A DNA stretch of 32,000 bases from Exiguobacterium profundum (GTDB lineage: Bacteria; Bacillota; Bacilli; Exiguobacteriales; Exiguobacteriaceae), in the NCBI RefSeq assembly GCF_025234635.1, contig NZ_JANIEG010000004.1; one strand, 5' to 3'. Under the pieces are notes generated by a model, which did no database searches, had not been told where the DNA came from, and was given only the letters and a program-made list of their open reading frames with translations. Positions 6,512 to 23,218 of this stretch are shown here, one piece after another (position 1 is the first letter of the stretch; each line of letters opens with the position of its first letter). A program made the translations under genes and the position numbers.

Positions 6512-6770
6512 ACAGATACGATGAATGGCTTTGATGAGGAGTAGTACGCATACTCCATTCCTTTTAGAGACGCGACCGCTTGGTGAAAGGTTGCGAGGGA
6601 TGGACGCGGAAGTCGCCTCGGAGCTGACTTTCTGAATGGAGTAGGAAAGTTCGGTCCATCGACCGTTATTCGATTTTGAGGGCGCCATTTTTTGGCGAAC
6701 TAAGGTGGTACCGCGGAAGATCACGGCTTCTTTCGTCCTTAGCATATAGGACGAGAGAAGCCGTTTTTGT
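6512..6770 (+). promoter_or_regulatory. T-box riboswitch leader, valine specifier (GUC)
   Basis: GA/K-turn TGATGAG (6532-6538), AGUA S-turn, AGAGA bulge, and GGTGAAA distal loop. Specifier loop GAA-GUC-G, with GUC at 6612-6614 closed by a GAGG/CCTC helix. Conserved T-box AACTAAGGTGGTACCGCGG at 6698-6716. Terminator CGGCTTCTTTCGTCCT (6724-6739) / AGGACGAGAGAAGCCG (6748-6763) followed by TTTTT. Confidence 0.9.
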
Positions 6771-6801
6771 GTTCACCAATAAGATAGAGGAGGCGCTACA
6801 C

Positions 6802-9453
6802 ATGGCCCATGAGACAAATGAAATCACCATGCCGACGAAGTACGACCCAAGTGCGACGGAGTCAAAATGGTACGACTACTGGTTAGAGAACGATGTATTT
6901 AAAGCAGACGAGGACGATTCGAAACAACCGTACACGATTGTCATCCCACCACCGAACGTTACCGGGAAACTTCACCTCGGTCACGCCTGGGACACGACGC
7001 TTCAAGACTTGTTGACACGTCTCAAGCGTATGCAAGGCTATGACGTGCTCTGGCTCCCAGGGATGGACCACGCCGGAATCGCGACACAAGCGAAAGTCGA
7101 GCAAAAACTCCGTGAAGAAGGCGTCATGCGTTACGACCTCGGACGTGAGAAGTTCCTCGAGAAGACGTGGGAATGGAAAGACGAGTACGCGAAGACGATT
7201 CGCGACCAATGGTCAAAACTTGGTCTCGGTCTCGACTACTCGCGTGAGCGCTTCACACTCGACGAAGGGCTCTCAAAAGCCGTTCAAGAAGTATTCGTCC
7301 GTCTTTATGAAAAAGGCTTGATTTACCGTGGCGAATACATCGTTAACTGGGACCCGGCTCAAAAGACGGCCGTTTCAGATATCGAGGTCATTTACCAAGA
7401 AGTCGAGGGTGCATTCTATCACATGAAATACCCACTCGCTGACGGTTCGGGTCACATCGAGATCGCGACGACACGTCCCGAGACGATGCTCGGTGATACG
7501 GCGGTTGCCGTCAACCCGAAAGATGAGCGTTACACACACCTCATCGGCAAGACGATCATGCTTCCAGTCATGAACCGTGAAATCCCGATCGTTGCCGACG
7601 ACTATGTCGACATGGAGTTCGGTACAGGTTGCGTGAAGATCACGCCAGCACACGACCCGAACGACTTTGAAATCGGAAACCGCCACGAGCTTCCACGCAT
7701 CCTCGTCATGGATGAAGGCGGGAAGATGAACGAGAATGCTGGTAAGTACGAAGGGCTCGACCGCTTCGAATGCCGCAAGCAACTCGTCAAAGACCTTGAG
7801 GCGGACGGCACACTCGTGAAGATTGAGCCGCACACGCACTCGGTTGGTCACTCAGAGCGTTCAGGCGCAGTCATCGAGCCATACCTTTCGAAACAATGGT
7901 TTGTTGACATGGAGCCACTCGCGAAAGCGGCACTTGAGGCACAAGGAAACGACGACACGAAAGTCAACTTCGTCCCAGAACGCTTCGAAGGCACATACCT
8001 CCGTTGGATGGAGAACATCCGCGACTGGTGTATCAGCCGTCAACTTTGGTGGGGCCACCGCATCCCGGCTTGGTACCATAACGAAACAGGAGAAGTGTAT
8101 GTAGGGAAAGAAGCGCCAGCGGACAGTGAGAACTGGACACAAGACGAAGACGTCCTCGACACATGGTTCTCGTCAGCACTTTGGCCGTTCTCAACAATGG
8201 GCTGGCCGGATGCGGACGCACCGGACTTCAACCGTTACTTCCCGACGAGCGCGCTCGTCACGGGATACGACATCATCTTCTTCTGGGTATCACGGATGAT
8301 CTTCCAATCACTCGAGTTCACAGGGAAGCAACCGTTCAACGACGTCCTCATCCACGGTCTCATCCGTGACTCGGAAGGACGCAAGATGTCGAAATCACTC
8401 GGTAACGGCGTTGACCCGATGGAAGTCATCGACCAGTATGGAGCGGATTCACTCCGTTGGTTCCTCCTCACAGGTTCGACACCAGGGAACGACCTTCGTT
8501 TCTATTGGGAGAAGATCGAGTCGACATGGAACTTTGCGAACAAGATTTGGAACGCAAGTCGTTTCGCGCTCATGAACATGGATGGACTCAAAGTCGAAGA
8601 CATCGACCTAACGGGTGAGAAGACGCTTGCTGACAAGTGGATCTTGACACGCTTGAACGACACGATTGACCAAGTGACACGCCTCGTCGACAAGTACGAG
8701 TTCGGTGAAGCCGGTCGTTACTTGTACAACTTCATCTGGGAAGAGTTCTGTAACTGGTACATCGAGATGGCGAAACTCACGCTCTACGGTGAGGACGAAG
8801 CGGCGAAGCACACGACACGTTCGGTCCTCGCGCATACGCTCGATTCGATCATGCGTCTCATGCATCCGTTCATGCCGTTCCTCACAGAAGAAATTTGGCA
8901 ACACTTGCCGCACGAAGGCGATTCAATCGTTCGTGCAAGCTACCCGACGAGTCGTGACGACCTTCACTTTGCGGATTCGGTTCCAGCGTTTGAAGCTGTG
9001 ATGAACGTCATCCGCTCGGTTCGTAACATCCGTGCCGAAGTGAACGCACCGATGTCGAAACCAATTCAGCTCTTCATCTCGACGAGCGATGATGCGACAC
9101 AAGGTTACTTGAGCGCGAATGAAATGACGATCGGCAAGTTCACGAATGCGACAGAGCTTGAAATCGGACGTGGTCTCACGGCCCCGGACAAGTCGATGTC
9201 AGCAATCATGACGGGAGCAGAGCTCTTCATCCCGCTCGCAGACCTCATCAACTTCGAAGAAGAAATCGCTCGTCTTGAAAAAGAAGTGGCGAAGTATGAG
9301 AAAGAAGTCGAGCGCGTGCAGAAGAAACTCGGAAACCAAGGCTTCATCGCCAAGGCGCCGGCTCACGTCATCGACGAAGAGAAAGCAAAAGAAAAAGACT
9401 ACCTCGACAAGCGTGACGCGGTCCGCGCCCGTTTGGAAGAGTTGCGTAAGTAA
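6802..9453 (+). CDS. valS: Valine--tRNA ligase
   Basis: HIGH-type motif [18 protein letters not shown] motif, and a C-terminal coiled coil. The ATG at 6802 has RBS AGAGGAGG; the ORF-track start at 6676 lies inside the T-box leader. Confidence 0.98.
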
Positions 9454-9548: not shown

Positions 9549-10313
9549 ATGAGACGAATCGGGGTAATATGTATTCTTGTCTTGGGACTAGCGGGGTGTA
9601 TGACACCAAAAGAGACGAAATCTATCGAAACAGTGGATGTGATGGATGTGGAAGAGATTGAGAAGGAGAGAGTGATTGATGAATCCCAATTTCCAGACGT
9701 AGAAGTGACGGGGACGACGATTGTTGAAGTGCCAGCAAGAACGAAACAGATTTCAGATGCCGTTGTGGCACAAACGACCCTTCAATATGAAGATGGGTCG
9801 ACGAGACATTTATCGAAAGATCACATTTTAACGGAGACGATGGTCGGAGGAATTGGTTTAGTTGCGATGACCGTCCCTGACCGTGAGAACCCGTTTGGCG
9901 TATTCATTTACGATGTGAGAAATGAGTGGGCGCAGCGTGGAATGCAACGTTTCGGGATTCCAGAAACATCATCAGCGTTCGTTCACGGATTAGATCTTCC
10001 TAATAAAGAGATGGAGGCCATCAGTACGGATTATTCAGGTAGCGATTGGTCGGTGAAGCTTTGGACGTTATATGACGAGACACGCCTCATCAGTATCATT
10101 GTGACGGATTCTTTCACTGAAGTAGAAGGGGAGATGTCGGAACAGCCAGAACCGTATGTTTTGGAACAATCATATGGGAACGGTTTATACTATTTATCAC
10201 AAGGAAGACTGATTATCGTGACAGGAAATATCTCAGAAGAAGAGTTATTGGTACTCACTGACTCGCTACCGGAACCTTCGTCTGTATCGTTTCCGTTTCA
10301 TGATCCGGAGTAA
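9549..10313 (+). CDS. Hypothetical lipoprotein
   Basis: Signal peptide with lipobox: MRRIGVICILVLGLAG|C. I recognise no family with confidence. The C-terminal segment LYYLSQGRLIIVTGNISEEELLVLTDSL is faintly reminiscent of DUF4367-type domains. Spot-checked lines in the neighbouring GNAT gene and in valS gave 22/60 versus 36/60 G+C. Confidence 0.75.
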   Translation: MRRIGVICILVLGLAGCMTPKETKSIETVDVMDVEEIEKERVIDESQFPDVEVTGTTIVEVPARTKQISDAVVAQTTLQYEDGSTRHLSKDHILTETMVGGIGLVAMTVPDRENPFGVFIYDVRNEWAQRGMQRFGIPETSSAFVHGLDLPNKEMEAISTDYSGSDWSVKLWTLYDETRLISIIVTDSFTEVEGEMSEQPEPYVLEQSYGNGLYYLSQGRLIIVTGNISEEELLVLTDSLPEPSSVSFPFHDPE

Positions 10314-10359
10314 AGATGAACACGCACACTTATAGAACCGATGAAAAGGAGGGGGCCTG

Positions 10360-10806
10360 TTGCTCAATCGAAAGGAAATGATTCTACGAATTCGTACTGC
10401 TGAAATGAATGATGTAGCTGCACTGTCAGAATTAATGGGAGAGTTGGGATACCCGACTACAGAAAAGCAGATGGCAATCCGTTTGATGAATATTCAACAA
10501 GATTCGAATTATCACACATTTGTAGCGGTGGAAAATCAAGAAATTGTAGGGATGATTGGTTTTTTTAGAGGAGTGTCTTATGAAGTAGATGCATCCTACA
10601 TTCGAATCATTGCTCTTGTAGTGAAGGCATCTCATCAAAAAAATGGGATAGGGGCTTCTTTAGTGAATCATGTTCAAGAGTGGGCACATCAACATGGCAT
10701 AATGAAAATAGCGGTCAATACAGGAAATCGACGAACGGGTTCACACGTATTCTACAAAAAGATGGGCTTTGATGGAACAGGGACAGGCTATTATAAGTCC
10801 ATTTAG
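10360..10806 (+). CDS. GNAT family N-acetyltransferase
   Basis: Acetyl-CoA-binding motif A VVKASHQKNGIGASLVNHV and C-terminal FYKKMGF. TTG start at 10360 lies 6 nt after RBS AAGGAGGG; the ATG at 10378 is an alternative. Confidence 0.88.
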   Translation: MLNRKEMILRIRTAEMNDVAALSELMGELGYPTTEKQMAIRLMNIQQDSNYHTFVAVENQEIVGMIGFFRGVSYEVDASYIRIIALVVKASHQKNGIGASLVNHVQEWAHQHGIMKIAVNTGNRRTGSHVFYKKMGFDGTGTGYYKSI

Positions 10807-10876
10807 TAGGAGATAAAGAAAGCATTTTTCAAATTCAAATTGGAGCAGAAAAAACGATGGAAGGACGTCATATATT

Positions 10877-11211
10877 TTGCCAATCCATGAATTCGATACA
10901 TGGCATCGAGAGTTAGATTTACCAATCTACGTATCAAATCATCCTACATATACGAAGGTTCATGACGAATTGATCCAGGAATTGATGGAGGCGCGTTCGA
11001 TTGTACGTACCTACTATCATTCATACGATCGCCTTCGGTTTGGATTGTGTTATCACGGCATAACCATTATCCCAAACGAATCTTTGCCACATCTTTACGA
11101 GATTGTCATAGAATCACAATCTTCAATCATGCCGAGGAGTTGAATGACTTGGCAACCCTCATTCTCTCAGCTCAACGCGAAGGAATGGATGTAGTTCATT
11201 TTGGTATATAA
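10877..11211 (+). pseudogene. Small hypothetical protein, paralog of 11230-11577, apparently frameshifted near 11115
   Basis: The ORF 10877-11143 aligns with the downstream paralog (HEF..., YHSY, GITIIPNESL versus GITLIPHASL). The conserved C-terminus AEELNDLATLILSAQREGMDVVHFGI* is encoded in a different frame and ends at 11211. Compare ATSELGQLIIKIIKARDEGKDMIHFGL* in the paralog. Confidence 0.6.
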
Positions 11212-11229
11212 AGATATGGGGGGAGTATT

Positions 11230-11577
11230 GTGTCTTATTATCACGAATTTGGAATAATCGATTCCATTCATGGGGAAGAGCTTCATGTGCAGTATATACC
11301 GGAAAGATACGGATGTGTTGTGGTGGATGGGGAAGAAGTGGAGCAATGGATTGAACAGTTAAGTGACATGCGCACATTCTTTCACTCATATCATTGTCCT
11401 GGCCATGGATTGGATGAGTGCGGCATTACATTGATTCCGCATGCATCTTTATCATTCTTTTTTGAAGTCGTGTTGAATAGAATGAACAATCAGGCAACTT
11501 CGGAATTGGGGCAGCTGATTATAAAAATTATCAAGGCGCGAGATGAAGGGAAAGATATGATTCATTTTGGTCTTTGA
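11230..11577 (+). CDS. Small hypothetical protein (intact paralog of 10877-11211)
   Basis: GTG start preceded by GGGGGGAG. 115 aa, no signal peptide or TM segment, no family recognised. Confidence 0.7.
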   Translation: MSYYHEFGIIDSIHGEELHVQYIPERYGCVVVDGEEVEQWIEQLSDMRTFFHSYHCPGHGLDECGITLIPHASLSFFFEVVLNRMNNQATSELGQLIIKIIKARDEGKDMIHFGL

Positions 11578-11592
11578 ATTAAAATGTAAGGT

Positions 11593-11636
11593 AAAACAAT
11601 CCCTCGAACAGATTGAAGTGTTCGAGGGATTGTTTT
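11593..11636. terminator. Bidirectional terminator between convergent genes
   Basis: Perfect 17-bp stem AAAACAATCCCTCGAAC / GTTCGAGGGATTGTTTT with a 10-nt loop. A/T runs on both sides allow it to serve both 11577(+) and selO(-). Confidence 0.85.
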
Positions 11637-11637
11637 A

Positions 11638-13074
11638 TCACGTGCCACAAAACGTTTGATACGGATACGTTCGTGGTGGACCTGCCGATATATATTCAGC
11701 CGGTTTGTCGTAGTTATATGGGTCACGCAAAATGGTGAGTAGTGACTCGGTCGGTCCGAAGTCACCGCGTTCTGCTGCTTGAATCGCTTTTTCAACATGA
11801 TGATTTCGGGGAATGACGGCCGGGTTATATTGGCGCATGATTCGACTGACGTCCTCGTCCGGGAGACCTTGCTCACTCAAACGTTTCTGCCAAGCGTCAA
11901 TCCACGCCTTCCCATCTTCCCGGGTTGAGAATGGGAGAGATTCACTCTCACCAAGCGTCAGCGAACGGAACGTATTCGTATAATCTGCCTCCGTCTCCAT
12001 CATCAAGCGAAGCAGTTCATCCGTTAGCTCATCGTCACCATCTTTTCGGACGAATAGGCCAATCTTATGTGCGAGTCCGGTAAAGTACGCTTCTTTATAC
12101 AACTCGGTATAACGGGTGAGTTGCTTGTTCGCGACATCAACCGCTTCTTCTTTCGTTTCGCCAAGGAGCGGCAGCAACGTCTCCGCCAGTCGGGCGAGGT
12201 TCCAAGACCCGATATATGGTTGATTCGCATAGGCGTAACGTCCCTCTCGGTCGATCGAGCTGAAGACCGTCTCCGGATGATACGTGTCCATGAACGCGCA
12301 TGGTCCGTAATCTAGACCTTCTCCGCTGATGAACATATTGTCCGTATTCATCACCCCATGAATGAACCCGATGAGTTGCCAGTTGGCAATCAGTCTCGCC
12401 TGTCTTTCGACGACGCGTCCGAGGAATTGTTCATAGCGATTCGTTGCATCGATCAAGTCTGGATCGTGTCGTTTGATTGCTACTTCAGTAAGAGCGATGA
12501 CGTCATCGATGGAGCCGGCGCCTGCTGCGAATTGGAATGTTCCGACACGAAGATGACTTGAGGCGACCCGAGTCAGGATCGCTCCATGCTTCGGACCTTG
12601 ACGCATGATGGCTTCCCCTGTCTGAACGACGGCGAGCGCCCGGTTCGTCGGAATGCCGAGGGCGTGCATCGCCTCGCTGATGATGAACTCGCGTACCATT
12701 GGCCCGAGTGCGGCTCGTCCGTCGCCCCCTCTAGAATACTCCGTCGGTCCAGAACCCTTCAGTTGCACATCGACACGCTTCCCGTTCGGAGTCACATGTT
12801 CCCCGAGCATGAGGGCGCGTCCGTCCCCGAGCATCGTCAAGTTGCCGAATTGGTGTCCAGCGTATGCTTGTGAGAAAGACGTCTCTGTTTGACGATTGCC
12901 GGCAAGTAAATCGATGTCTTGTTTGAGGCTTTGCGCATCAAGGCCGAGCGAAGCGGCTAATGGATCGTTAAACAAGACGAGTGTCGGATTGTCGACCGGA
13001 TGGATGGGCCCACGGTCGTAAAAGATGTCACGTAGTTCGAGGTAAGTCGCCTCGAAGTTCCAGTCAGTTGTCAT
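11638..13074 (-). CDS. selO: Protein adenylyltransferase (AMPylase/UMPylase) SelO/YdiU family
   Basis: Motifs AGHQFGNLTMLGDGRA, HGVMNTDNM and DYGPCAFMD, plus the C-terminal TFCGT typical of bacterial SelO. The ATG at 13074 has RBS GAAGGAGG. The ORF-track extension to 13395 overlaps folC and is spurious. Confidence 0.93.
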   Translation of the reverse strand: MTTDWNFEATYLELRDIFYDRGPIHPVDNPTLVLFNDPLAASLGLDAQSLKQDIDLLAGNRQTETSFSQAYAGHQFGNLTMLGDGRALMLGEHVTPNGKRVDVQLKGSGPTEYSRGGDGRAALGPMVREFIISEAMHALGIPTNRALAVVQTGEAIMRQGPKHGAILTRVASSHLRVGTFQFAAGAGSIDDVIALTEVAIKRHDPDLIDATNRYEQFLGRVVERQARLIANWQLIGFIHGVMNTDNMFISGEGLDYGPCAFMDTYHPETVFSSIDREGRYAYANQPYIGSWNLARLAETLLPLLGETKEEAVDVANKQLTRYTELYKEAYFTGLAHKIGLFVRKDGDDELTDELLRLMMETEADYTNTFRSLTLGESESLPFSTREDGKAWIDAWQKRLSEQGLPDEDVSRIMRQYNPAVIPRNHHVEKAIQAAERGDFGPTESLLTILRDPYNYDKPAEYISAGPPRTYPYQTFCGT

Positions 13075-13183
13075 GGCGCATGCCTCCTTCTTCGCTTCGA
13101 GTATAGCACAGACTGTTTTCCATAACGGCTGTCGTGAATTTTGATAAGATGAAACAGAAGTGTAAACAGTAGGAGTGTGGAAG

Positions 13184-14386
13184 ATGAAGACGAGACAAGA
13201 TGTATTCGATTGGTTGAGTGGACAGCTTCGCTTCGGGATCAAACCGGGTCTTGAGCGGATGAGCTGGATGATTGAGCAGTTAGGGTTAGAAGAACGCCGA
13301 TCCATCCATGTGGCCGGGACGAACGGAAAAGGGTCGACCGTCGCGTTTTTACGGGCGATGGCGATGGAGAACGGCTTATCCGTCGGCACATTCACTTCCC
13401 CTTATATCATTCAGTTCGAGGAGCGAATCATGTTGAACGGCGAACCGATTCCGGAAGACGCGCTCGTCGACGTGGCAAATCGAGTCAAAACGTGTGCGGA
13501 CAAAGCACCAGAGACGTTGACGGAGTTCGAACTCTTGACGATGATGGCATGGTGCTATTTTGATGACACACGTCCAGACTTGATCATTTGGGAAGTCGGT
13601 CTCGGGGGCCGTCTCGATTCGACGAACGTATTGAAGCAGCCACTCGCGACGATCGTCACGTCAATTGGACATGACCATCAAGGGATTCTCGGCGATACGC
13701 TTGAAGAAATTGCGCTGGAAAAGTACGGCATCATGAAACGTGGCGTGCCGATGTTCCATAGTATCGAGAAGAAATCGTTGATTGAGTTGTTGCATCAAAG
13801 AGGGGACGATGTAGGTTCTTCCATTCAAGATGTTCGTCCAATCGTGAAGAAGATTGTGGACGGGGCAGAGACCGTCGTGACGTATGAGGATACGCCATCT
13901 GTCGTGCTCGGCTTGACGGGGCATCATCAAGCATACAACGGGGCGTGCGCCGTGGCGGTTGCGCGTCACCTCGGCTGGAGTGATGACGCAATCCGAAGAG
14001 GTCTCGAGCGAGCACGGCATCCTGGGCGGTATGAGCTCGTCTCCAAACGACCGCGTATCATTTTAGACGGGGCACATAATCCGGAAGGCATCGAGGCCTT
14101 GGTTTTACAAGCCAAATATGAGACAGACGTGGCAGTGTTGACGGCGATTTTAGAAGATAAAGACCGTGACAAGATGATTCACGCGCTTCAAGAAATTGGA
14201 GACGTTTACGAAACGACATTTGACTTTCCGCGTGCTAGAACGAAAGCCCAACTAGAGAAAGATGGGGCGCGCTTTGTCGAATGGAAAGCATGGCTACAGA
14301 ATTGGGTCGAGTCGCCGACAAGCGAGACGTTGATTGTGACCGGGTCTCTTTATTTCATCAGTGAAGTGAGACGTTTCCTAAGCTAA
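13184..14386 (+). CDS. folC: Bifunctional folylpolyglutamate synthase / dihydrofolate synthase
   Basis: P-loop HVAGTNGKGST and Mur-ligase-type motifs (EVGLGGRLDSTN, DGAHNPEG). The ATG at 13184 lies 8 nt after AGGAG. Conserved valS-folC neighbourhood. Confidence 0.93.
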   Translation: MKTRQDVFDWLSGQLRFGIKPGLERMSWMIEQLGLEERRSIHVAGTNGKGSTVAFLRAMAMENGLSVGTFTSPYIIQFEERIMLNGEPIPEDALVDVANRVKTCADKAPETLTEFELLTMMAWCYFDDTRPDLIIWEVGLGGRLDSTNVLKQPLATIVTSIGHDHQGILGDTLEEIALEKYGIMKRGVPMFHSIEKKSLIELLHQRGDDVGSSIQDVRPIVKKIVDGAETVVTYEDTPSVVLGLTGHHQAYNGACAVAVARHLGWSDDAIRRGLERARHPGRYELVSKRPRIILDGAHNPEGIEALVLQAKYETDVAVLTAILEDKDRDKMIHALQEIGDVYETTFDFPRARTKAQLEKDGARFVEWKAWLQNWVESPTSETLIVTGSLYFISEVRRFLS

Positions 14387-14478
14387 AACATTTACCTGAT
14401 GTCAAAGAAATAGATGTATATTTTTTCAAGTGGGTGGGATAATTAGTAGTGAAGACTAAAAATAGGGAGGACTATTCA

Positions 14479-17400
14479 TTGCGTAAACTCATGCAATACA
14501 TAGCGGTTCTCGTATTAATCATATCCATTATTCCACAGAGAGTAGTTGCGGAGACCAATCAACCGATTTTAAACGTGTTGGTTCTTCGTGATGCTTTTAC
14601 TGCTTCGAAAGTACTTTCAGTGACTGAATACAATAATGCGGTGAATTCGTATCGTGCTTCACTGAATGTAAATACTGCAAAAGTGAATGCGCAATTCATG
14701 ACAATTAAACAATTTAACGCATCCCGTTTTCCGATGACAGGTGCATTCGATGCGGTCATGATTGGGAGCAGTCCTTTAACTGAGAAATATAAAAATGGGG
14801 CGCTTGTCGTCAACTCGAAAAATCATGACACGACAAATCAATTGAACGATTTGACAGAATTGAAAGCTACGGAACTATTTAATACAGTTGTCCGTGTCGG
14901 CTTGCCGCTTCTGATGCATGAGGATGCTGCGAACGGCGATACACAGTTAAAACGCTTGGCAGCCTATCAACGTGATTATGCGAACGTGAAAGTCTTTAAT
15001 CGAAATGATCAACAGAATGTCGATCGTGAGATGGCGCAGCAGTTGAATCAACTCACCATTTCCCGTCCGAGATTTCAATCAACTGAAGTGAAGTACAACA
15101 ATCAGTCGATTAGCAATCAGACGATTCAAGTAAAAGATGGTGTCCGTCATCCAATCAACTTTGCCTATACTTTATCGCAACCACCAACTCCTTCGGCATT
15201 CGTAGAATTGTATATCGATTACGACCATAACGATCGATTTGATGCGGATGAAAAAGTCATTGAGCAACAGGCAAAAGAATCGGGAACGCTCAATTTCACA
15301 TTATCGCGTCCGACGTTTAGCGGACCGAAGAACTGGATGCTCGTCGTCAAGGATTCGTTGACAGGTCGAGCGGATTATCGTAAGGGGAGTATTCTTTACC
15401 TCGATGAAAAAGTGAAAGCGAACATCTTACAGCTCACTGCAGGAACTGGCACGAACGGAAGAATTTCAAGCTATTTATCTAATATGTTAGTAGACCCGTC
15501 TGGGAATTATGAATTCAATTTAACGGACGGTACAACGAGTCAGTTTGAGGGTGGTACTTATGATCAGGCATTACTCAATAACGACTACGATATGCTGATC
15601 TTTGGTTTCCAAGATTCGTACAACGTTTATGGAAGCATGAATGCTGCGGCCACTGCGAAAGTTAAACGTTTCAGTGAAACAGGACAAGGCGTCATGTTGA
15701 CGCACGATACGATTTTCCGTACGAATAGTTCGTCATCGCCTACGTCCGAGTGGGAACGTCAATTTGTGAATGCCAATCCTTCACTGAATATCTCAGGGCA
15801 AAAAATGTACACGAACATGGGATTTGGTGCTCCTGAAACAACCAATAAGGCAGTCAAGGTACAGGATGGGATTTTCACTTCTTATCCGTATCGCCTCGAC
15901 GATTCGATTAAAAATATCTCAAATACCCATAACCAATATTTCACACTCGATTTGAATGATCCGGATGTGACGCCTTGGTACAACCTGTATTCAACAGGTG
16001 GAAATCGTGTATATGGAGATGCAAACAATCATTACTATACGTATACAAAAAACAATTTCACCTACTCCGGTGCTGGGCACACAAACAAGTTTTCGGTAGA
16101 AGATGAGAAGAAAATCTTCATCAATACGATGTATCGCGCCTTTATCGGAGCAAATCATAAACCTTACAACGTGATTGAGTCCGTCAGTGATTCAAACCAG
16201 TCCTATACTTCTGCTGATTTAAAAGCCGGGTCTGTCGAAGTGACTGCGGGACAAGATGTCAAATTGATGTGGCGGCCGAGCGATTATGACTTCCAAGACT
16301 TGTTCCTCAATTCAACAATCACGTATAACGGGAAACAGGTCGCATTCGATAACTTACGCAACTACGAAGTTAAAGAGTTTACGATTCCGGCAGCGGATGT
16401 TGTCGCAGATCGGCCGATTGAAGTGAAAATCGAGACGTCCGATCAACGGAATGCGAAGGTGATCGATACGTTCACCATCAACGTCAAACGTGCGGAGAAT
16501 GTTTCCGACTTGATTCAAGTGTCCCGTTCGATTGACCCGTCGACAATCAACTTGTACGAAACGGGAACGATTCACTATCAAGTTCAATATCCTGAACGTT
16601 TCGATCGATTGCCGAATCAGTTGGGCGATAAGTTTTTACGAGTGGATTCAACCTCTTTCTCAGAAAAACTGCCAAGTCAACTCGAAGTCGTGGCGATTCG
16701 TGACGCGAACGGAAATGAATATCCTGTCACGAAGCCGAATGAAATCAAGTTACAGTTGAAGCCGGACTTGTACTATGAACGAAATGGGAACACGAACATT
16801 TTCCTTCCGAACGATAGTGGAGACCGGACCGTGAAGTTTGAAGTAGTCGTCCGAGCCATCGAGCCTTCTGCCTCACTCATCCAGTTGAAAAAAGCGGATA
16901 ACCAATTAACGACGTTAATTGAGTATTCGAAGAAGCAAGATCACATTTTAGATAAACTTAACGACTGGGATAAGGAATTAGAGGTTCAATCATCGTTCCC
17001 AGACTTGCTGATCAATATCGGGGCGCCGTATGCGTATGAAGCGAAGATTCCTGACGTCACCTTACAAATTGGGGCACAGCAAATTGTGAGTCCGACCATC
17101 ACGGATGCGAAAGGAAACACCTTTACGAACCCGAAATGGAGTAGCTTGAAGTGGGAAATCGTCGATGCGAGCGGTGTCGCGAGACTCGTCACGCAAGGGA
17201 ACAATGCGATTGTGACCGGTTTGAAAACAGGAACTGCGAAGTTGCGATTGACAATCGATCCGGGCGATAAGAGACCCCTTGTCGTAGCGGAGTCGAAAGT
17301 CAATGTAATCAGTCCACCTGAGCAACTTACTATTCAGTCGAAAGAGTTGTATGTCGGTCAAACGACTACGGTCACACCAAAAATCATGCCCGAAACGGCT

Positions 17401-18213
17401 CAATACAAGTCGGTTCGCTATGTCGTCGAATCTGGGGATAGTGTGAAGTTTGAACAAGTTGGCAACAACTTGAACATCATTGGACTGAAACCAGGTACGA
17501 CTCAGTTTAAGGCGACTGTGGATGTCGGTGACCTCTTCGGTGGCTTGAATATCGCTACTCCGAGCACCGTCTTTACCATCCAAGTCAAGGCACCATCCTT
17601 GAGCCAAACGCCGAGCCAACTCGACCTTTGGGTATGGGATAGTTTGGATGAAGAAAAACGCGTGAACGAAGTCGCCTCGATTCAAGTGACCTCAACACCA
17701 ACCGTATCCATTCCGTTTGAACGAATCGGGTCCATCCCATCTGCTTTGACGGTGACACAAAGTGCGACAGGATATGAATTACGTGCCAACCATGGTTACG
17801 GAAATAATGGTGTCGTGACTGACATTCCAATTCAGACGACATTCGATGACAATGCGTTACGAAACATTCGTTCGAACACGTCGATTGTCCGTGTCAACGA
17901 ATACCCGAACCAATTGATGTCAAAAGACATGACAATCAATATTGGTGAAGGGACGGCACCACGACTACCTCTTCTTGATTACTGGCCTACGACTTCGACT
18001 TGGCGTGACTATCGCATGGAGATTGTATCCGGCGAAGAATATGTTCAAGTGAGTGGATCAGGAAAAGAGTTGATTCCAGTGAAACCTGGTGTGGCGAAAG
18101 TGGAAGTCTACACGACGCTTCCGGCTGGAAAACCGTTTGAAGCCGTGAAGGACACGTTTTATGTACGCATCATCCAAACGAATGCCTCGGGACAGGATGA
18201 TGACCGTTATTAA
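14479..18213 (+). CDS. Large secreted multidomain protein: two alpha/beta (GATase1/ThuA-like, possibly DUF5057-type) modules, Ig-like domains and C-terminal Big_2 repeats
   Basis: Likely TTG start at 14479, 8 nt after AGGGAGG, giving signal peptide MRKLMQYIAVLVLIISIIPQRVVA|ETNQ (the ORF track starts at 14449). It has Big_2-like repeats with VTGLKTGTAKLRL, IIGLKPGTTQFKA and LIPVKPGVAKVEV. There is no LPXTG motif, no prepilin motif and no TM anchor. Spot-counted lines gave 23/60 and 24/60 G+C. Confidence 0.85.
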   Translation: MRKLMQYIAVLVLIISIIPQRVVAETNQPILNVLVLRDAFTASKVLSVTEYNNAVNSYRASLNVNTAKVNAQFMTIKQFNASRFPMTGAFDAVMIGSSPLTEKYKNGALVVNSKNHDTTNQLNDLTELKATELFNTVVRVGLPLLMHEDAANGDTQLKRLAAYQRDYANVKVFNRNDQQNVDREMAQQLNQLTISRPRFQSTEVKYNNQSISNQTIQVKDGVRHPINFAYTLSQPPTPSAFVELYIDYDHNDRFDADEKVIEQQAKESGTLNFTLSRPTFSGPKNWMLVVKDSLTGRADYRKGSILYLDEKVKANILQLTAGTGTNGRISSYLSNMLVDPSGNYEFNLTDGTTSQFEGGTYDQALLNNDYDMLIFGFQDSYNVYGSMNAAATAKVKRFSETGQGVMLTHDTIFRTNSSSSPTSEWERQFVNANPSLNISGQKMYTNMGFGAPETTNKAVKVQDGIFTSYPYRLDDSIKNISNTHNQYFTLDLNDPDVTPWYNLYSTGGNRVYGDANNHYYTYTKNNFTYSGAGHTNKFSVEDEKKIFINTMYRAFIGANHKPYNVIESVSDSNQSYTSADLKAGSVEVTAGQDVKLMWRPSDYDFQDLFLNSTITYNGKQVAFDNLRNYEVKEFTIPAADVVADRPIEVKIETSDQRNAKVIDTFTINVKRAENVSDLIQVSRSIDPSTINLYETGTIHYQVQYPERFDRLPNQLGDKFLRVDSTSFSEKLPSQLEVVAIRDANGNEYPVTKPNEIKLQLKPDLYYERNGNTNIFLPNDSGDRTVKFEVVVRAIEPSASLIQLKKADNQLTTLIEYSKKQDHILDKLNDWDKELEVQSSFPDLLINIGAPYAYEAKIPDVTLQIGAQQIVSPTITDAKGNTFTNPKWSSLKWEIVDASGVARLVTQGNNAIVTGLKTGTAKLRLTIDPGDKRPLVVAESKVNVISPPEQLTIQSKELYVGQTTTVTPKIMPETAQYKSVRYVVESGDSVKFEQVGNNLNIIGLKPGTTQFKATVDVGDLFGGLNIATPSTVFTIQVKAPSLSQTPSQLDLWVWDSLDEEKRVNEVASIQVTSTPTVSIPFERIGSIPSALTVTQSATGYELRANHGYGNNGVVTDIPIQTTFDDNALRNIRSNTSIVRVNEYPNQLMSKDMTINIGEGTAPRLPLLDYWPTTSTWRDYRMEIVSGEEYVQVSGSGKELIPVKPGVAKVEVYTTLPAGKPFEAVKDTFYVRIIQTNASGQDDDRY

Positions 18214-18217
18214 GTGA

Positions 18218-18880
18218 ATGGCAGAAAGTTGGCGAATGATGAATCGCAAGCGAATAATGATTGGCATCACCGGATTGATTCTCGTCATCGGATTGGGAGG
18301 GCTCCTGTACTGGAGTCAATCCCAACCCGAGCTCTCGCAGTTATCCGGTGACGAGTTAGTGAAAGAAGTGAGTCAACGCTCTTCGGTGACAGAAGAAGAA
18401 TTGACAGATTTACAGGCAAGGGAAGAATGGGAGGCCGTCCGACTTGTTTTAGAGGACCAAAAAGTTGTGCCGACAGCCGAACAATTCGCCACAGCAGTGA
18501 CGCTCGCACCTCTAGACGTGATTGAAGCATACTTCGAGCAAGGGATTGACCCGTTCGAGGAAGTGGAAGGGATTCCCGTTATCACACCATTGTTCAGTGC
18601 GAACGGCAGTCCGGATCAATGGAAGTTGGCGATGCGTTATGTTGAAGACGATCGACTTCTTGGCATCGCGGTCGACTCGTTGAACCTTGATGCGGTCAAA
18701 GAACTCCTCGGACAAGGCTATATGATTCAAGATACCGAATCGGTGTTATTGCAGCCAGTCCGTCACAATCAGGTCGAGTTGACGCAACTGCTTCTCGATA
18801 ACGGCGCGCAATGGACGAAAGCAATGGAACAGATGGCCAAAGACTACAACTCGGACCTCATTTTAAAGATGGGGAACTAA
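18218..18880 (+). CDS. Membrane-anchored protein with ankyrin-repeat-like C-terminal region
   Basis: Starts 4 nt after the stop of the giant gene. N-terminal TM segment IMIGITGLILVIGLGGLLYW. Ankyrin-like helices LGIAVDSLNLDAVKELLGQGY and LLQPVRHNQVELTQLLLDNGAQ. The ATGs at 18236 and 18239 are alternative starts. Confidence 0.7.
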   Translation: MAESWRMMNRKRIMIGITGLILVIGLGGLLYWSQSQPELSQLSGDELVKEVSQRSSVTEEELTDLQAREEWEAVRLVLEDQKVVPTAEQFATAVTLAPLDVIEAYFEQGIDPFEEVEGIPVITPLFSANGSPDQWKLAMRYVEDDRLLGIAVDSLNLDAVKELLGQGYMIQDTESVLLQPVRHNQVELTQLLLDNGAQWTKAMEQMAKDYNSDLILKMGN

Positions 18881-18884
18881 AAAA

Positions 18885-18922
18885 ATCGGCTTCTTCTCAA
18901 TCAGAGAGGAAGCCGATTTTTT
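18885..18922. terminator. Bidirectional terminator between convergent operons
   Basis: ATCGGCTTCTTCTC / GAGAGGAAGCCGAT with one G-U pair and a 5-nt loop. Flanked by AAAAAA upstream and TTTTTT downstream. Confidence 0.85.
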
Positions 18923-18926: not shown

Positions 18927-20576
18927 TCATTTCAATTGAACCGGATGACTGACGAAGAATTGAAGTTGATTCGTGACCGGTAATGTTTCAAGTTGATTGA
19001 ACACGGAATCGTTATACGTCAGTTTTAATCGAGACTTTTCGGCTTCGTGAGCTGGAACTTGACGGTCGAAGTTCTCAGCTGGGCTTAAGCCGTTGCCCCC
19101 AGTAAATTCCCCTCTAAAGACGTTCACTTCGAGTGGTCCTTTACTGTACAGACCTCCGTTGACTTCGAGAATAGATCCGACCGCATACACATAGGTCGGT
19201 TCGTTCGAGTCACTATACATGAACGCCTGGAGCGTCGTCGGAGTGTCATCAAACTCGTTGATTCGGTTCAACAGAATCTTTCCTTTGGATAACAGGATGA
19301 GTGAGTTCCCTTTGTCTGCATCAATCGGAAGAATATTGGCTCGGTCGATGAACGTATCACCGAGCGTGTAGACTGTCGAACTGAAGGAGACGTTCCCTTT
19401 AATGGTCAAGTCACCACGTACGATCAGTGGCCGTGCAATCGTCAGCTTCTCGAGTGATTCAATGACGACGTCCCCGTCGAAAAGAAGCGGGGCATTCGAC
19501 TCGGTGATGGATTCCGTGACATACATGGCGCGATCCGAAATGGCATCCGGTAATGTCACGATGGTCGGGTCGGTGAGGGCGTTGTAGGCATCCGCCCGTA
19601 AGTACGAAGTCGGGCGTTCGATAATAGATGTCCCATCTTCCGAGAGCACGCGCTCGAGTTCGAACACTTGATTGGTCGAGCGAATCAGACCTTCTTCAAA
19701 GATTATTGAATCGACGTCATTTGTGTATGCGAGCGGTGTGTCGAGTCGTCGATTTAAAAATTCGATGATTGAGTAGTCGTATTGGAATGGAGAAAAGCGA
19801 CTCGGGGACACCCCGGCGTCTGCCTTCTCGCCAGCTTGTTCCGGACCTACCGTGAAGTAGTTCTCTTGCTGGCAACTCAAGCAATCGCTCAATTCGACTA
19901 AATCGATTCGGCCATTCAAGTGAAGACGACTAGAATCGACATTTTCAATCTGCTTCGCCACACCATCCAATTGGAAGTTCGCTTGACGCATGAAAGCGAG
20001 AGGACCACCTGAATAGATATTTCCTTGAATCGTCGGCATGCCGTTCACGTCCAACTGTTGGTCGGACCCGAGGACGTAGTATAAAAAGGACGGGAGAGCC
20101 GTCAAGTATAAGTCTTGCGTGTATTCAACGGTAAGCATCGGTTGTTCCGGATTCACTTGTCGCGATGCCGTGACGTTCACTTGGAGAATCGTCGTGAACG
20201 GCGCCGTCTGAATGGCGGTATCCGTAGCATCTTTCTTCAGCTCGATGGAATAGCGGACCTCACTATCCGTAGTCAATGCCGTGAACGGTTCGTCACTGAC
20301 GATGAGCGACTGAACCTTGCTTTGGAATGCCGCTTCCGATTCCATATGAGTCGGGACTTCCGCTTCTCCGTGAAGCGGGAACTGGGTCCGAACCTCATCG
20401 GCGATGAGGCGAAGTGCGCTTTTCGCATCTTCATTCAGTTGAGTATCTTCTGTACGGATGACCGTCAATTTATTCGACGCCAAGTTGACTTGCATGGCGG
20501 CGAGCGAGAGGACGGCGAGAGCCGCCATCGTCACGAGAACAAGCACGAGAACATATCCGTCTTCACGTTTTCGCAT
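18927..20576 (-). CDS. Large PilX/PilK(GspK)-like minor pilin-like protein (549 aa)
   Basis: The ATG at 20576 is preceded by a perfect AAGGAGG. N-terminus MRKREDG|YVLVLVLVTMAALAVLSLAA is a prepilin-like leader and hydrophobic helix lacking Glu+5. The long C-terminal part has repetitive beta-helix-like G/N-rich segments. It is the last gene of the minor-pilin operon. Confidence 0.75.
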   Translation of the reverse strand: MRKREDGYVLVLVLVTMAALAVLSLAAMQVNLASNKLTVIRTEDTQLNEDAKSALRLIADEVRTQFPLHGEAEVPTHMESEAAFQSKVQSLIVSDEPFTALTTDSEVRYSIELKKDATDTAIQTAPFTTILQVNVTASRQVNPEQPMLTVEYTQDLYLTALPSFLYYVLGSDQQLDVNGMPTIQGNIYSGGPLAFMRQANFQLDGVAKQIENVDSSRLHLNGRIDLVELSDCLSCQQENYFTVGPEQAGEKADAGVSPSRFSPFQYDYSIIEFLNRRLDTPLAYTNDVDSIIFEEGLIRSTNQVFELERVLSEDGTSIIERPTSYLRADAYNALTDPTIVTLPDAISDRAMYVTESITESNAPLLFDGDVVIESLEKLTIARPLIVRGDLTIKGNVSFSSTVYTLGDTFIDRANILPIDADKGNSLILLSKGKILLNRINEFDDTPTTLQAFMYSDSNEPTYVYAVGSILEVNGGLYSKGPLEVNVFRGEFTGGNGLSPAENFDRQVPAHEAEKSRLKLTYNDSVFNQLETLPVTNQLQFFVSHPVQLK

Positions 20577-20592
20577 CAGGATGCCTCCTTTC

Positions 20593-21102
20593 TTAGAATG
20601 GGATGGAGCTTTCAAATGTCGTAACAGAATCGGAATCGTTTGATTGAGTCAAATCCAACTCGATTTCGATGAGTCCACCGGTCATGTAAGTCGGGCGTCT
20701 CGGATCGAACACGGGATCTTTTAACTGGATGGTCATCCGTTCGACTGTGATTTGTGGATTAGAAGGCGTAAACGAATCCTCTGAGAGAACCAAGTCGGTC
20801 GGGACGTATCCCGCCTCCCGGTAAATCATTCCGGTTTCCGATATGTCTGGAGCGGACAATCGATAAAATTGAAACGAGCCGTCCACTTCCGTCACGGCGT
20901 CGAATTCGGTCCGGTTCACGTCAGAGAGCACGGAGGCAATCAAATAGTCGGCCTCGCTTCGAAGGTCACTCGTCTCGTTCGTCATTTGAAAACCGAGCGT
21001 TCCAGTGATAAAGGCCGTAATGATGACGCCACTTAAAATCGAAGCGACGACGACTGTGACGAGCAACTCGACGAGCGTGAAGCCGTCTTCACGTTTCTCC
21101 AT
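20593..21102 (-). CDS. Minor (pseudo)pilin with prepilin-type N-terminal cleavage/methylation motif
   Basis: MEKREDG|FTLVELLVTVVVASIL from the ATG at 21102, 1 nt after the upstream stop. The ORF-track start at 21156 would give an unusually long leader. Confidence 0.85.
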   Translation of the reverse strand: MEKREDGFTLVELLVTVVVASILSGVIITAFITGTLGFQMTNETSDLRSEADYLIASVLSDVNRTEFDAVTEVDGSFQFYRLSAPDISETGMIYREAGYVPTDLVLSEDSFTPSNPQITVERMTIQLKDPVFDPRRPTYMTGGLIEIELDLTQSNDSDSVTTFESSIPF

Positions 21103-21103
21103 C

Positions 21104-21559
21104 TCAGTCAGTTGTCGGGACAGCCGTTTCAGGGAACGGTTCGCGCAATGTCGCATTCGAAATGACTCCTTTCAAGGTGACGGGCGTTTGCAAACGGTCG
21201 GTCGTCACCGAAATTTCAACTTCAATTGTATGTCCGGGTGAAGTGGACAGCGATTGAATGGTTGCGATATACGTATCCCCATGGATTCGGGTATCTTCGC
21301 AGAAGTCGCACGTCGAGCTGATCCCGTCCCGATTCAACAATTGACGCAGTTCGAGCGGTTCATCAACGGACGCGGCCCGTCGATTTAAAGTATGTAACGT
21401 GTTTTGCGCCACTTGGTTCGCAATCGTTTGATTGAGGCTGTCGTGTGTCGTCTTCAAACTTTGGCTGAAAATCGAAAGTAAAGAGAATGAGACAATTGAA
21501 AGAACAACGATGGAGACGAGCACTTCGACGAGCGTAAAACCTTTTTCGGAATGCGACAA
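21104..21559 (-). CDS. Minor (pseudo)pilin with prepilin-type N-terminal cleavage/methylation motif
   Basis: TTG start at 21559, 8 nt after AGGAGG. N-terminus MSHSEKG|FTLVEVLVSIVVLSIV. Confidence 0.88.
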   Translation of the reverse strand: MSHSEKGFTLVEVLVSIVVLSIVSFSLLSIFSQSLKTTHDSLNQTIANQVAQNTLHTLNRRAASVDEPLELRQLLNRDGISSTCDFCEDTRIHGDTYIATIQSLSTSPGHTIEVEISVTTDRLQTPVTLKGVISNATLREPFPETAVPTTD

Positions 21560-21716: not shown

Positions 21717-22931
21717 ATGAAGCGGTATGGGATGCATCTTATCATTTTGATTGGACTCGTCGTACTCGTGACATTACCGACGATTGGACTCGTCAATTAC
21801 TTAGATGCGTCTGCTGAGTCGAGTGCTACATACAAAAAAGATACGACGGTCGCAGGTGTCGACGTATCAGGGATGACGAAAGAAGAAGCGGACGTTCGTC
21901 TCGATAATGCGATTAAAGATTTTAATACGACACCCTTTTCAATCAATTTGATGGATGGGACGGTCATGGAGATTGGAAAAGAAGTCGTGACGTTCGATGT
22001 ATCGAATACGTTAGACTCCATTAAAGATACAGGTGACTATCCGCTGTTGACATCCGTAGATGAAACGAAAGTCGAGCCTTATCTCGAAGGTCAACCCGTC
22101 ACGCTGACGATGATTGCCCCGGCGTTGATGGATGCCGCATCGATGTTGGAGTCATCTGTGACATTAGAGCAAGTCGCGGCAGAAAATGAAGTCGTCGCCT
22201 CGTTCACTGTGAGCCCGACACCGGCTATGCAGTCAGCCCTTGATCGAATGAACGGATTCGAGATGGCAGCGGGAGACATCTTTAGTCTCAAATCGTTCGG
22301 AGAAGATTACGAAGCGCTCACTACATTAGGGTCTTCATTCTATCGCCTATTTGCGGCGACACCGTTCGCCATTCTCGAACGTGTGCCTCACGAAACACTT
22401 CCTTCCGGGGTAGAGCTAGGCTATGACACGAAAGTAGATGAGCGCTCGAACTTTGCTGTTCAAAACCGAGAAGACACATCATATGCCATCCTCGTTTTGA
22501 ATGAAGGGGGTTCTGTGACGGTTCAATTGCTCGGTCAACCTTTTGACGCCGCTTTCGAAGCGAGAGTTGAAGAAGTGAAGACGGTACCGCATCAAAAAGT
22601 CGTTCGCTTCTCATCTTCGCTCCCGTCAGGCAGTTCATCGGTCACCCAGTCAGGTCAAGATGGACAGTCAGGTAAGCTCTACCGGGTCACTGTGACTGAA
22701 GAAGGGGAGACGTTGGAATTACTCGGGTTTGATTTTTATGCACCGACACCGGAAATCGTGACGAAGAGTTCCGTTCCGCTTCCGCCACCGGATCCGGTCG
22801 AACCGGTCATCCCGACATTCCCGGATGAGGACGAGGAAGAAGACCCGTTCCCGAATGATTCGAACGACGACCCATTTGAGGCAGAACCGCCCGTATTAGA
22901 AGAACCTGCAGAAGAGGAGGCAGTGGGATGA
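21717..22931 (+). CDS. Membrane-anchored YoaR/VanW-family-like protein (PG_binding_4-like, degenerate VanW, G5-like, acidic Pro-rich tail)
   Basis: ATG at 21717 after GGGGGGA. TM anchor HLIILIGLVVLVTLPTIGLV. It has VAGVDVSGMTKEEADVRLDNAI (PG_binding_4-like), and GDIFSLKSFGE...LGSSFYRLFAATPFAILERVPHE...GYDTKV (VanW-like layout without the usual GGG-C-Q signature). It also has TQSGQDGQSGKLYRVTVTEEGE (G5-like) and a tail PPPDPVEPVIPTFPDEDEEEDPFPNDSNDDPFE. Confidence 0.7.
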   Translation: MKRYGMHLIILIGLVVLVTLPTIGLVNYLDASAESSATYKKDTTVAGVDVSGMTKEEADVRLDNAIKDFNTTPFSINLMDGTVMEIGKEVVTFDVSNTLDSIKDTGDYPLLTSVDETKVEPYLEGQPVTLTMIAPALMDAASMLESSVTLEQVAAENEVVASFTVSPTPAMQSALDRMNGFEMAAGDIFSLKSFGEDYEALTTLGSSFYRLFAATPFAILERVPHETLPSGVELGYDTKVDERSNFAVQNREDTSYAILVLNEGGSVTVQLLGQPFDAAFEARVEEVKTVPHQKVVRFSSSLPSGSSSVTQSGQDGQSGKLYRVTVTEEGETLELLGFDFYAPTPEIVTKSSVPLPPPDPVEPVIPTFPDEDEEEDPFPNDSNDDPFEAEPPVLEEPAEEEAVG

Positions 22932-23218
22932 TCGGCTATTTGATTTTACTCGGCTTTTGGGTACTCGCCACATTGACACTGTTCGCTTTATCCGTTCCGA
23001 TGACGAGAAAACGTGAAACGAAGCTTGTCATCAGCCTGTGGACTGCCCTTCTGTCTGGTGGCGTCTATTTGATGGTAGAAGAATCACTCGTTCAAACATG
23101 GTGGGCATGGGTGATTCTTATCGTTGCATTGATTGGAGGGGTGGCTGCGAGCGTCTTTGTCGAAGAACGGAACGACAAGACCGAGCAGGAGGAGGCTCCT
23201 CAAAGGATGGTGAAGTAA
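22928..23218 (+). CDS. Small integral membrane protein (3 predicted TM segments), unknown function
   Basis: ATGA overlap with the upstream gene. Three hydrophobic segments and a charged C-terminus EERNDKTEQEEAPQRMVK. It ends 1 nt before the pilB start. Confidence 0.7.
   Translation: MIGYLILLGFWVLATLTLFALSVPMTRKRETKLVISLWTALLSGGVYLMVEESLVQTWWAWVILIVALIGGVAASVFVEERNDKTEQEEAPQRMVK

Follow-up and report, generated by a model that had tools for sequence, protein, structure and literature searches.

The window analysed here is a 32,000-nucleotide stretch of the Exiguobacterium profundum genome (contig NZ_JANIEG010000004.1), in which a gene of the DUF5057 family lies next to the genes of a type IV pilus. 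An earlier note on this DNA had singled out the encoded protein as a candidate monoderm analog of the PilY1-type tip adhesins. In order, the window holds valS (6676-9453), an islet of low guanine plus cytosine (G+C) content with a GNAT gene, selO on the minus strand, folC (ending at 14386), the DUF5057 gene and a 220-residue open reading frame (ORF), both on the plus strand, a terminator, the three minus-strand genes of a minor-pilin operon, a VanW/G5 gene, a 96-residue ORF and then pilB, pilT, pilC, pilA, pilD, pilM, pilO and maf. As judged from sequence, the neighbourhood of this gene here and in other genomes establishes a functional tie of the DUF5057 family to the type IV pilus, specifically to its minor-pilin module, and marks the family as an accessory element conserved in the type IVa pilus gene clusters of Firmicutes. 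The features immediately concerned are as follows.

14479-18213, plus strand: DUF5057-family gene, from the ORF and its translation, encoding a precursor of 1244 residues
14464-14471, plus strand: ribosome-binding site AGGGAGGA, read from the sequence, 7 nt 5' of the TTG start
14479-14550, plus strand: Sec-type signal peptide, residues 1-24, read from the sequence, with equivalent N-termini in homologs
18218-18880, plus strand: co-transcribed 220-residue ankyrin-repeat protein, starting 4 nt after the DUF5057 stop
18880-18922, both strands: bidirectional intrinsic terminator, a 19-bp stem between A and T runs
18927-20615, minus strand: large last gene of the minor-pilin operon, a 562-residue ORF from translation, with a weak PilX_N match
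20593-21156, minus strand: minor pilin with prepilin motif GFTLVE (N_methyl, 29.2 bits)
21104-21559, minus strand: minor pilin with prepilin motif GFTLVE, first gene of the operon (N_methyl, 32.3 bits)

The DUF5057 gene is read from a TTG at 14479 to a stop at 18213, and homologs share the same starting residues, MRKLMQY; the product is thus 1244 and not 1245 residues long, as had been counted before. Its closest homolog, a 'DUF5057 domain-containing protein' of Exiguobacterium sp. s59, is 95% identical. The signal peptide, MRKLMQYIAVLVLIISIIPQRVVA, with predicted cleavage at VVA|ETNQ, contains the only hydrophobic 19-mer in the entire protein (residues 4-26), and the mature form would have a mass of about 136 kDa and a pI of 5.3. 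Scanning the protein recovered no prepilin motif, no LPXTG-like motif, no second hydrophobic segment and no cysteine, and a Pfam search recovered no wall-binding module, congruent with the earlier description of a Sec-exported protein devoid of such anchors. Specifically, neither a G|F-T-L-x-E leader nor an N_methyl match places it among the type IV pilins, and with a C-terminal end reading ...QDDDRY it is not sortase-anchored.

The 562-residue protein encoded across the terminator has a PilX/GspK-like N-terminus (G|YVLVLVL) without Glu5, and is our candidate for the docking partner of the DUF5057 protein. The terminator at 18880-18922 serves both operons, that of the DUF5057 and ankyrin genes and the minor-pilin operon converging on it. 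Convergence and a common terminator had both been described before and hold; the DUF5057 gene itself does not directly reach the terminator, as the ankyrin gene at 18218-18880 lies between.

We then assessed whether the association with pilus genes extends to other genomes, in the absence of which the earlier note had considered its own idea to fail. A scan using one genome per species yielded 209 relatives, of which the best-scoring 80 were kept, and the 10 kb around each DUF5057 gene were searched by tblastn with the pilus proteins of the window; four loci are cut by contig ends, leaving 76 that are informative. Pilus genes lie within 10 kb in 75 of these 76 loci, distributed over 12 Bacillales genera (Exiguobacterium, Bacillus, Neobacillus, Peribacillus, Jeotgalibacillus, Aneurinibacillus, Brevibacillus, Anoxybacillus, Alkalihalobacillus, Paenibacillus, Cohnella and Saccharibacillus). 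Core pilus machinery was detected in 74 of the 76 and proteins of the minor-pilin operon in 72, and in 70 a homolog of the 562-residue protein is convergent and just downstream of the DUF5057 gene. Two Brevibacillus loci lacking a tblastn match nonetheless carry convergent ORFs with prepilin motifs.

Two layouts are found. In the first, valS, folC and the DUF5057 gene, with the ankyrin gene where present, converge on the large gene and the two minor pilins, beyond which follow VanW/G5 and pilBTC; this is the layout of Exiguobacterium, the Bacillaceae genera, Aneurinibacillus and some Brevibacillus loci. In the second, which is mainly that of Paenibacillus, Cohnella and Saccharibacillus, an operon running pilM...D-A-C-T-B on the opposite strand precedes the DUF5057 gene, which again converges on the large gene and two minor pilins, with unrelated outer flanks. 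The convergent pairing of DUF5057 and minor pilins is therefore kept in both, despite the pilB operon being on opposite sides.

Nine distant loci were picked by hand among members with 26-30% identity or extra domains (a Caldicellulosiruptoraceae bacterium, Caloramator mitchellensis, Clostridium zeae, Clostridium sp. CTA-5, a Turicibacter sp. and four metagenomic contigs). All nine have the DUF5057 gene adjoining genes with prepilin motifs. In eight, comprising the five named genomes and three of the metagenomic contigs, it directly follows the minor-pilin genes on the same strand, preceded by a prepilin gene of about 260-320 residues, a gene of about 690-880 residues and, in some, a further prepilin gene of about 175 residues; in the five named genomes this block terminates pilB-pilC-pilA-pilM-pilN-pilO. 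The fourth metagenomic contig, L089, displays the convergent layout of the Paenibacillus type. Thus, with 75 of 76 Bacillales and nine of nine distant loci, the linkage survives the test set for it beforehand.

These distributions also bear on the possibility that we are dealing with an ordinary protein of the surface or of biofilms, unrelated to pili, whose gene neighbors theirs through local synteny in a single genus. Such chance adjacency could be argued from the local arrangement, where the gene is on the strand opposite to the minor pilins and in an operon of its own, and from one genome, Alkalihalobacillus bogoriensis, without nearby pilus genes. The linkage is however maintained in 12 Bacillales genera and two layouts and lies within the pil operon in Clostridia and Turicibacter, and we estimate that a pilus cluster of about 15 kb, in a genome of 3-8 Mb, would fall within 10 kb of a random gene with a probability under roughly 1%. 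We regard this explanation as very improbable, and chance adjacency as effectively excluded.

The distant loci further suggest a link to an experimentally studied pilus. In Clostridium perfringens, the order is pilM-N-O-CPE2280-CPE2279-pilA3-CPE2277, with CPE2277 last in the main pilus operon (PMC6958937), and it is described as a 'protein of unknown function' (PMC6958937; bioRxiv 10.1101/2024.11.04.621531). In Clostridium zeae, Clostridium sp. CTA-5 and Turicibacter, the DUF5057 gene holds the same place in the operon, and from gene order CPE2277 is probably the DUF5057 ortholog; the cluster entries of ten clostridial-type representatives are metagenomic or labelled 'Clostridium sp.', with no C. 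perfringens protein among them. In the literature searched, no phenotype of a cpe2277 mutant is reported.

Next, the architecture of the protein was examined using Pfam, an alignment of 22 homologs and an AlphaFold2 model of residues 25-575, calculated from a 14-sequence alignment.

14551-15063, plus strand: alpha/beta module 1, residues 25-195 (AlphaFold2; invariant columns in the 22-sequence alignment)
15064-15411, plus strand: immunoglobulin (Ig)-like beta-sandwich, residues 196-311 (AlphaFold2 strands at model residues 175-296)
15412-16173, plus strand: alpha/beta module 2, residues 312-565, the most conserved part (AlphaFold2, alignment and Foldseek)
16174-17040, plus strand: variable middle region, residues 566-854 (no Pfam match above noise)
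17041-18168, plus strand: C-terminal Ig-like region, residues 855-1230 (Pfam Big_2)
18169-18210, plus strand: extreme C-terminal tail, ...NASGQDDDRY-COOH (22-homolog alignment)

The family assignment, ventured as a guess in the earlier note, was borne out: against a gathering cut-off of 27.9 bits, the DUF5057 profile (PF16480) gives 32.7 bits over the full-length protein and 39.8 bits when module 2, to which its last third maps, is scored separately. The catalogue entry for DUF5057 goes no further than a domain of unknown function, and a full-text search of our literature library recovered no paper mentioning either DUF5057 or PF16480. In the model (mean predicted local distance difference test score, pLDDT, 79.5; predicted template modelling score, pTM, 0.82), a five-stranded alpha/beta module is followed by a beta-sandwich and then by another, larger alpha/beta module. 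The two alpha/beta modules read by eye before are accordingly seen in the model, with a single Ig-like domain between them rather than several; this sandwich is weakly GEVED-like (24.0 bits, with the Pfam cut-off at 24.4).

Module 1 displays the motif H116-x-T-x4-N-D-[IL]-T-x-L-K, with H116, T118, N123, D124, T126 and K129 invariant in the 22 aligned sequences. This stretch (14776-14865, residues 100-129) adjoins the one long loop that is modelled with low confidence (model residues 79-98, pLDDT below 50), and its high conservation together with the apparent disorder suggests a partner-binding or metal-binding loop.

Module 2 holds eight residues that are invariant in the 22 sequences, D371, H409, D410, H484, H518, H534, E543 and H560, and compared with divergent alleles it retains 72-83% identity where other parts drop to 40-65%. 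Modelled alone it reaches a lower confidence (pLDDT 66). Its leading Foldseek matches are STM1381 (3soz, E-value 6.8e-4), a 'putative ThuA-like protein' (4jqs, 4pxy) and STM3548 (2gk3), followed by glutaminase domains of CTP synthase and the DJ-1-family structure 4k2h (rank 46, E-value 0.036); all have template modelling (TM) scores of 0.25-0.42, and the best have TM scores of 0.3-0.4 with E-values between 7e-4 and 2e-2. The ThuA profile (PF06283, gathering cut-off 33.4 bits) gives no match to the window protein even at an E-value of 10 and a sub-threshold match to module 2 of one homolog, P0105 (27.4 bits, E-value 4.8e-6). Weak but consistent, these model-based comparisons suggest a class I amidotransferase-like or ThuA-like fold, which had been proposed for both modules and here extends to module 2 only. 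A classical class I glutamine amidotransferase with its Cys-His-Glu triad is ruled out, as the protein contains no cysteine whatsoever. Foldseek with the entire 551-residue model against the PDB gave only Ig and barrel matches of glycosidases at TM scores of about 0.15, which are uninformative, and sequence searches of the PDB (phmmer with the whole protein and a profile of its N-terminal part) found no relative among the solved chains; neither did a sequence search with the 562-residue neighbor.

The conservation of module 2 raises the question of whether the protein is rather a biogenesis factor or enzyme, the ThuA-like module acting through its invariant His/Asp cluster on the wall or on a glycan for passage of the pilus, or modifying subunits, with the Ig-like part as a spacer. 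It is the most conserved module, six of the roughly 12 histidines (1.0% of the 1244 residues) are invariant across the family, the nearest folds are alpha/beta folds of the enzyme type, one homolog has a ThuA match at an E-value of 5e-6, and the passage of monoderm pili through peptidoglycan is recognized as an unanswered question (PMC6916266). On the other hand, no characterized enzyme family matches the window protein, whereas the earlier note had named a match to such a family with an unrelated role as a ground for giving up its proposal; a ThuA profile match is likewise lacking for the window protein, and without cysteine a classical class I amidotransferase does not apply. Moreover, a housekeeping biogenesis enzyme is not expected to swap alleles between close strains or to gain lectin, von Willebrand A (VWA) or adhesive modules. 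Taken together, we find an enzymatic role improbable.

Such modules are indeed found outside the core. The middle region (residues 566-854), with 46-47% identity to divergent alleles, we infer to be beta-rich and Ig-like. In the C-terminal region, one Big_2 repeat at about residues 953-1017 exceeds the Pfam cut-off (25.4 against 22.8 bits) and a second at about residues 860-931 is weak (14.5 bits), short of the three or more repeats claimed before. An exhaustive HMMER search retrieved 2104 cluster representatives at an E-value of 1e-3 or below, superseding, jointly with the genome scan, a search of a word-indexed protein database with the N-terminal alignment profile that had returned a single protein; among the best 150 representatives listed, almost all have 1000-2500 residues. 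Across the family the alpha/beta-Ig-alpha/beta core is constant and the accessory modules vary: relatives carry up to six Big_2 repeats, PKD or ice-binding-like pAdhesive_15 domains according to Pfam, some have sub-threshold matches to DUF7910 at the N-terminus and to RicinB_lectin_2, a ricin-type lectin, and members from Clostridium and Turicibacter possess an N-terminal VWA domain. In the metagenomic, Paenibacillus-like locus L089, the protein is split into two adjacent ORFs (10001-14570), one of 791 residues with the core and one of 726 residues with pAdhesive_15 and Big_2, which could be a frameshift or a real division into docking and adhesive parts.

A further conserved element is the very end of the protein. 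All 22 aligned homologs terminate in tyrosine, preceded by D/N and R/K/V (as in ...DDRY or ...GDVY), and among 235 family proteins collected the last residue is Tyr in 133, Phe in 17 and Trp in 11, while clostridial-type members end instead in ...(L/P)-P-x-L-(F/R/Q/D/E). Retention of the tail over such evolutionary distance suggests that the free C-terminal peptide is a recognition element. Paenibacillus has the tail but no ankyrin gene beside it, and we therefore consider a pilus component that these bacteria share a likelier receptor than the ankyrin protein.

A tail of this type would also suit a protein that is released. TcpF of Vibrio cholerae and CofJ of enterotoxigenic Escherichia coli are Sec-exported, soluble and encoded in a pilus locus; both are small, have an N-terminal signal, belong to type IVb pili of diderm hosts and are without homology to DUF5057. 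Reportedly, in the work of Oki et al. from 2018 and 2022, they dock on the tip minor pilin via a short terminal segment, and by analogy the short conserved terminal peptide of DUF5057 is a plausible docking signal. The protein may consequently be a pilus-dependent exoprotein, pushed through the peptidoglycan and released in the fashion of a type II secretion system, like TcpF, CofJ or BsaC of C. perfringens, with the tail as the signal recognized by the minor-pilin tip. The 136-kDa mature protein without any anchor, the terminal motif and the tight minor-pilin linkage would all agree with this, and pilus-dependent secretion has been reported in a Gram-positive bacterium (bioRxiv 10.1101/2024.11.04.621531). 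Known pilus-secreted factors are however small or mid-sized and lineage-specific, unlike a family of more than 2000 clusters across Firmicute classes, and long Ig-like stalks with VWA or lectin modules are typical of cell-associated adhesins. We regard such release as unlikely, although not far-fetched, and it overlaps with pilus presentation in that a transiently docked protein could subsequently be released.

Comparison with two other Exiguobacterium genomes revealed that the gene has a history of its own.

14496-18713: recombining cassette, the DUF5057 gene and the first three quarters of the ankyrin gene (blastn against strain s37)

The blastn alignments to Exiguobacterium sp. s37, at 92-94% identity, stop at 14495 and resume at 18714. 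Most flanking genes of s37 have 90-95% DNA identity (mp187, 83.5%), whereas its DUF5057 protein is 54% identical in amino acids, and the DUF5057 gene can be aligned over just 35% of its length, with 69% DNA identity there. The opposite is observed in Exiguobacterium sp. s48, where DUF5057 reaches 94.6% DNA and 97% amino acid identity, above the flanking folC (86%), 562-residue gene (84%) and pilB (86%). Sharp borders and a phylogeny at odds with the flanks indicate, from these sequence comparisons, that alleles of the cassette are exchanged by recombination. Such turnover is expected of an exposed surface protein and is as such a sign of surface exposure. The low G+C content previously noted was confirmed, at 44.7% (48% at third codon positions) compared to 50-53% (55-65%) in the neighbors, and had been ascribed to separate acquisition or diversifying turnover. 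Turnover is upheld by the sharply bounded allele replacement; horizontal acquisition was rejected as the whole cause, with the gene being syntenic across the genus and pilA equally low in G+C, and recombinational allele exchange fits better.

The ankyrin gene, absent from the earlier note, is the second member of the operon. Its product has a positive-inside N-terminus and one membrane helix, placing the repeats on the outer face, and a weak Ank_2 match in Pfam; ORFs at the orthologous position downstream of DUF5057 have clear Ank_2 matches. An ankyrin ORF directly downstream and on the same strand is found in 34 loci from seven Bacillales genera, Exiguobacterium, Bacillus, Neobacillus, Jeotgalibacillus, Peribacillus, Anoxybacillus and Alkalihalobacillus (for instance at 13586-14275 in loci L004 and L005 and at 13775-14659 in L049), and is absent from the Paenibacillus-type and clostridial layouts. 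In A. bogoriensis (L049), a lipoprotein-type leader (...FMSGC) takes the place of the membrane anchor. Membrane-tethered ankyrin-repeat proteins outside the cytoplasm are unusual in bacteria, and a role in holding or handing over the DUF5057 protein would fit.

Aggregated, the conserved core and tail proposed for docking, the variable adhesive modules, the position at the minor pilins, the VWA variants and the allele turnover lead us to favor a pilus-presented adhesin that would work like PilY1, a reading by analogy that we hold with about even confidence. Similar to PilY1 and PilC1/PilC2 of the type IVa pili of Pseudomonas, Neisseria and Myxococcus, the DUF5057 protein is large, Sec-exported and not a pilin, and its gene sits with minor-pilin genes, inside the operon in the clostridial and Turicibacter relatives; in these and most of the metagenomic relatives examined it occupies the position of pilY1 in Gram-negative minor-pilin operons. 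Both families combine a conserved domain with variable adhesive parts, and the N-terminal VWA domain of some DUF5057 members mirrors P. aeruginosa PilY1. However, Pfam gave no match to the C-terminal beta-propeller domain that defines PilY1/PilC (E-value up to 1 for the whole protein, up to 10 for fragments), and any likeness is therefore one of function and not of family. In contrast to PilY1/PilC, the conserved part is an alpha/beta-Ig-alpha/beta unit near the N-terminus, and the gene in the window is convergent to the minor pilins rather than co-directional. The proposal of a PilY1-type analog is thus retained with respect to minor-pilin linkage and secreted non-pilin architecture, and not with respect to membership of the PilY1 family.

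For a PilY1-like adhesin, we infer the export route, docking, tip location and adhesion, most likely along the following lines. The exported protein would be held at the membrane face, in Bacillaceae by the membrane-tethered ankyrin-repeat protein, and be taken up by a priming complex in which the two small minor pilins join the large PilX/GspK-like protein. The growing pilus would then carry it through the wall, for display at the tip or close to it. The parts touching the pilus machinery would be the alpha/beta-Ig-alpha/beta core, above all module 2, and the invariant C-terminal tail, and those touching the outside would be the variable Ig-like modules, in relatives lectin-like, ice-binding-like adhesive and VWA modules.

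Several observations weigh against this reading. A. bogoriensis, the sole exception among the 76 loci, has folC-DUF5057-ankyrin with no pilus gene within 10 kb, and the linkage was sampled, in the best 80 of 209 relatives and in distant loci chosen by hand, rather than surveyed in the outer reaches of the family. The cpe2277 mutant of C. perfringens still secreted BsaC (bioRxiv 10.1101/2024.11.04.621531). In s37, the 562-residue putative docking partner is 96% identical whereas the DUF5057 protein is 54% identical, and any interface would therefore be confined to a few conserved parts. Finally, the many invariant His, Asp and Asn residues of the core, on a fold known from enzymes, suit a catalytic or metal site as much as they do a docking surface.

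Other pilus-associated proteins of monoderms provide partial parallels. Tapirins are likewise secreted non-pilin proteins encoded beside pilus genes, and are adhesins, but occur in a single genus, whereas DUF5057 members are found in Bacilli, Clostridia and Erysipelotrichia; phmmer and profile searches of all PDB chains returned no relevant match to a tapirin, with no tapirin-specific comparison being made. In Streptococcus sanguinis, PilB (VWA) and PilC (lectin) place adhesive modules on a type IV pilus, and DUF5057 relatives have modules of the same kinds; the streptococcal proteins are true pilins with a prepilin leader that are built into the fibre, unlike DUF5057 with its ordinary signal peptide and no pilin domain (PMC6916266).

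The remaining genes of the window yielded a number of further observations. The VanW/G5-domain protein between the minor-pilin operon and pilB (about 21720-22931) is kept in nearly all loci with the valS-folC layout and may be a wall-related pilus accessory protein. Just upstream of pilB, a 96-residue two-helix membrane ORF (22928-23218) overlaps the VanW/G5 stop and is kept in the closer Exiguobacterium loci. The pilM ORF (28617-30188) encodes 523 residues, of which the PilM_2 profile covers 31-160 only, and may represent a PilM-PilN fusion; pilM-like genes of Paenibacillus encode 535-541 residues. The listed folC ORF (13175-14386, plus strand) overlaps the 5' end of selO (11638-13395, minus strand) by about 220 nt, and translation of folC probably begins later than listed, near 13400. 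The islet at 10314-11637 (G+C about 0.41) contains two small ORFs besides the GNAT acetyltransferase gene (10360-10806); the close relatives s37 and s48 lack it or have other DNA in its place, and the blastn alignments to them break exactly there.

A review of monoderm type IV pili lists, among the open questions, the identity of the adhesive component and the way in which the fibre traverses the peptidoglycan, and it includes no DUF5057-like component (PMC6916266). In its most complete form, the proposal would make DUF5057 the missing non-pilin, pilus-associated component of Firmicute type IVa pili from Clostridia to Bacilli, a PilY1 counterpart of unrelated fold, with a ThuA-like core and a tail docking on the minor-pilin tip, an ankyrin hand-over in Bacillaceae and adhesive alleles exchanged as a cassette; we advance this combination tentatively, and would put its chances somewhat below even. 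Beyond the earlier note, the co-transcribed ankyrin gene, the conserved C-terminal tail and the recombining cassette are newly recognized, and what would be new in biological terms is a PilY1-like accessory role on an unrelated fold, the importance of which hinges on experimental confirmation. The tail and the ankyrin partner offer precise experimental handles for this. Type IV pili of Paenibacillus are a virulence factor (PMC9765702), and if the protein indeed is a pilus-presented adhesin or a pilus-exported factor, it would represent a concrete and genetically tractable candidate for Clostridium, Paenibacillus and environmental Bacillales.

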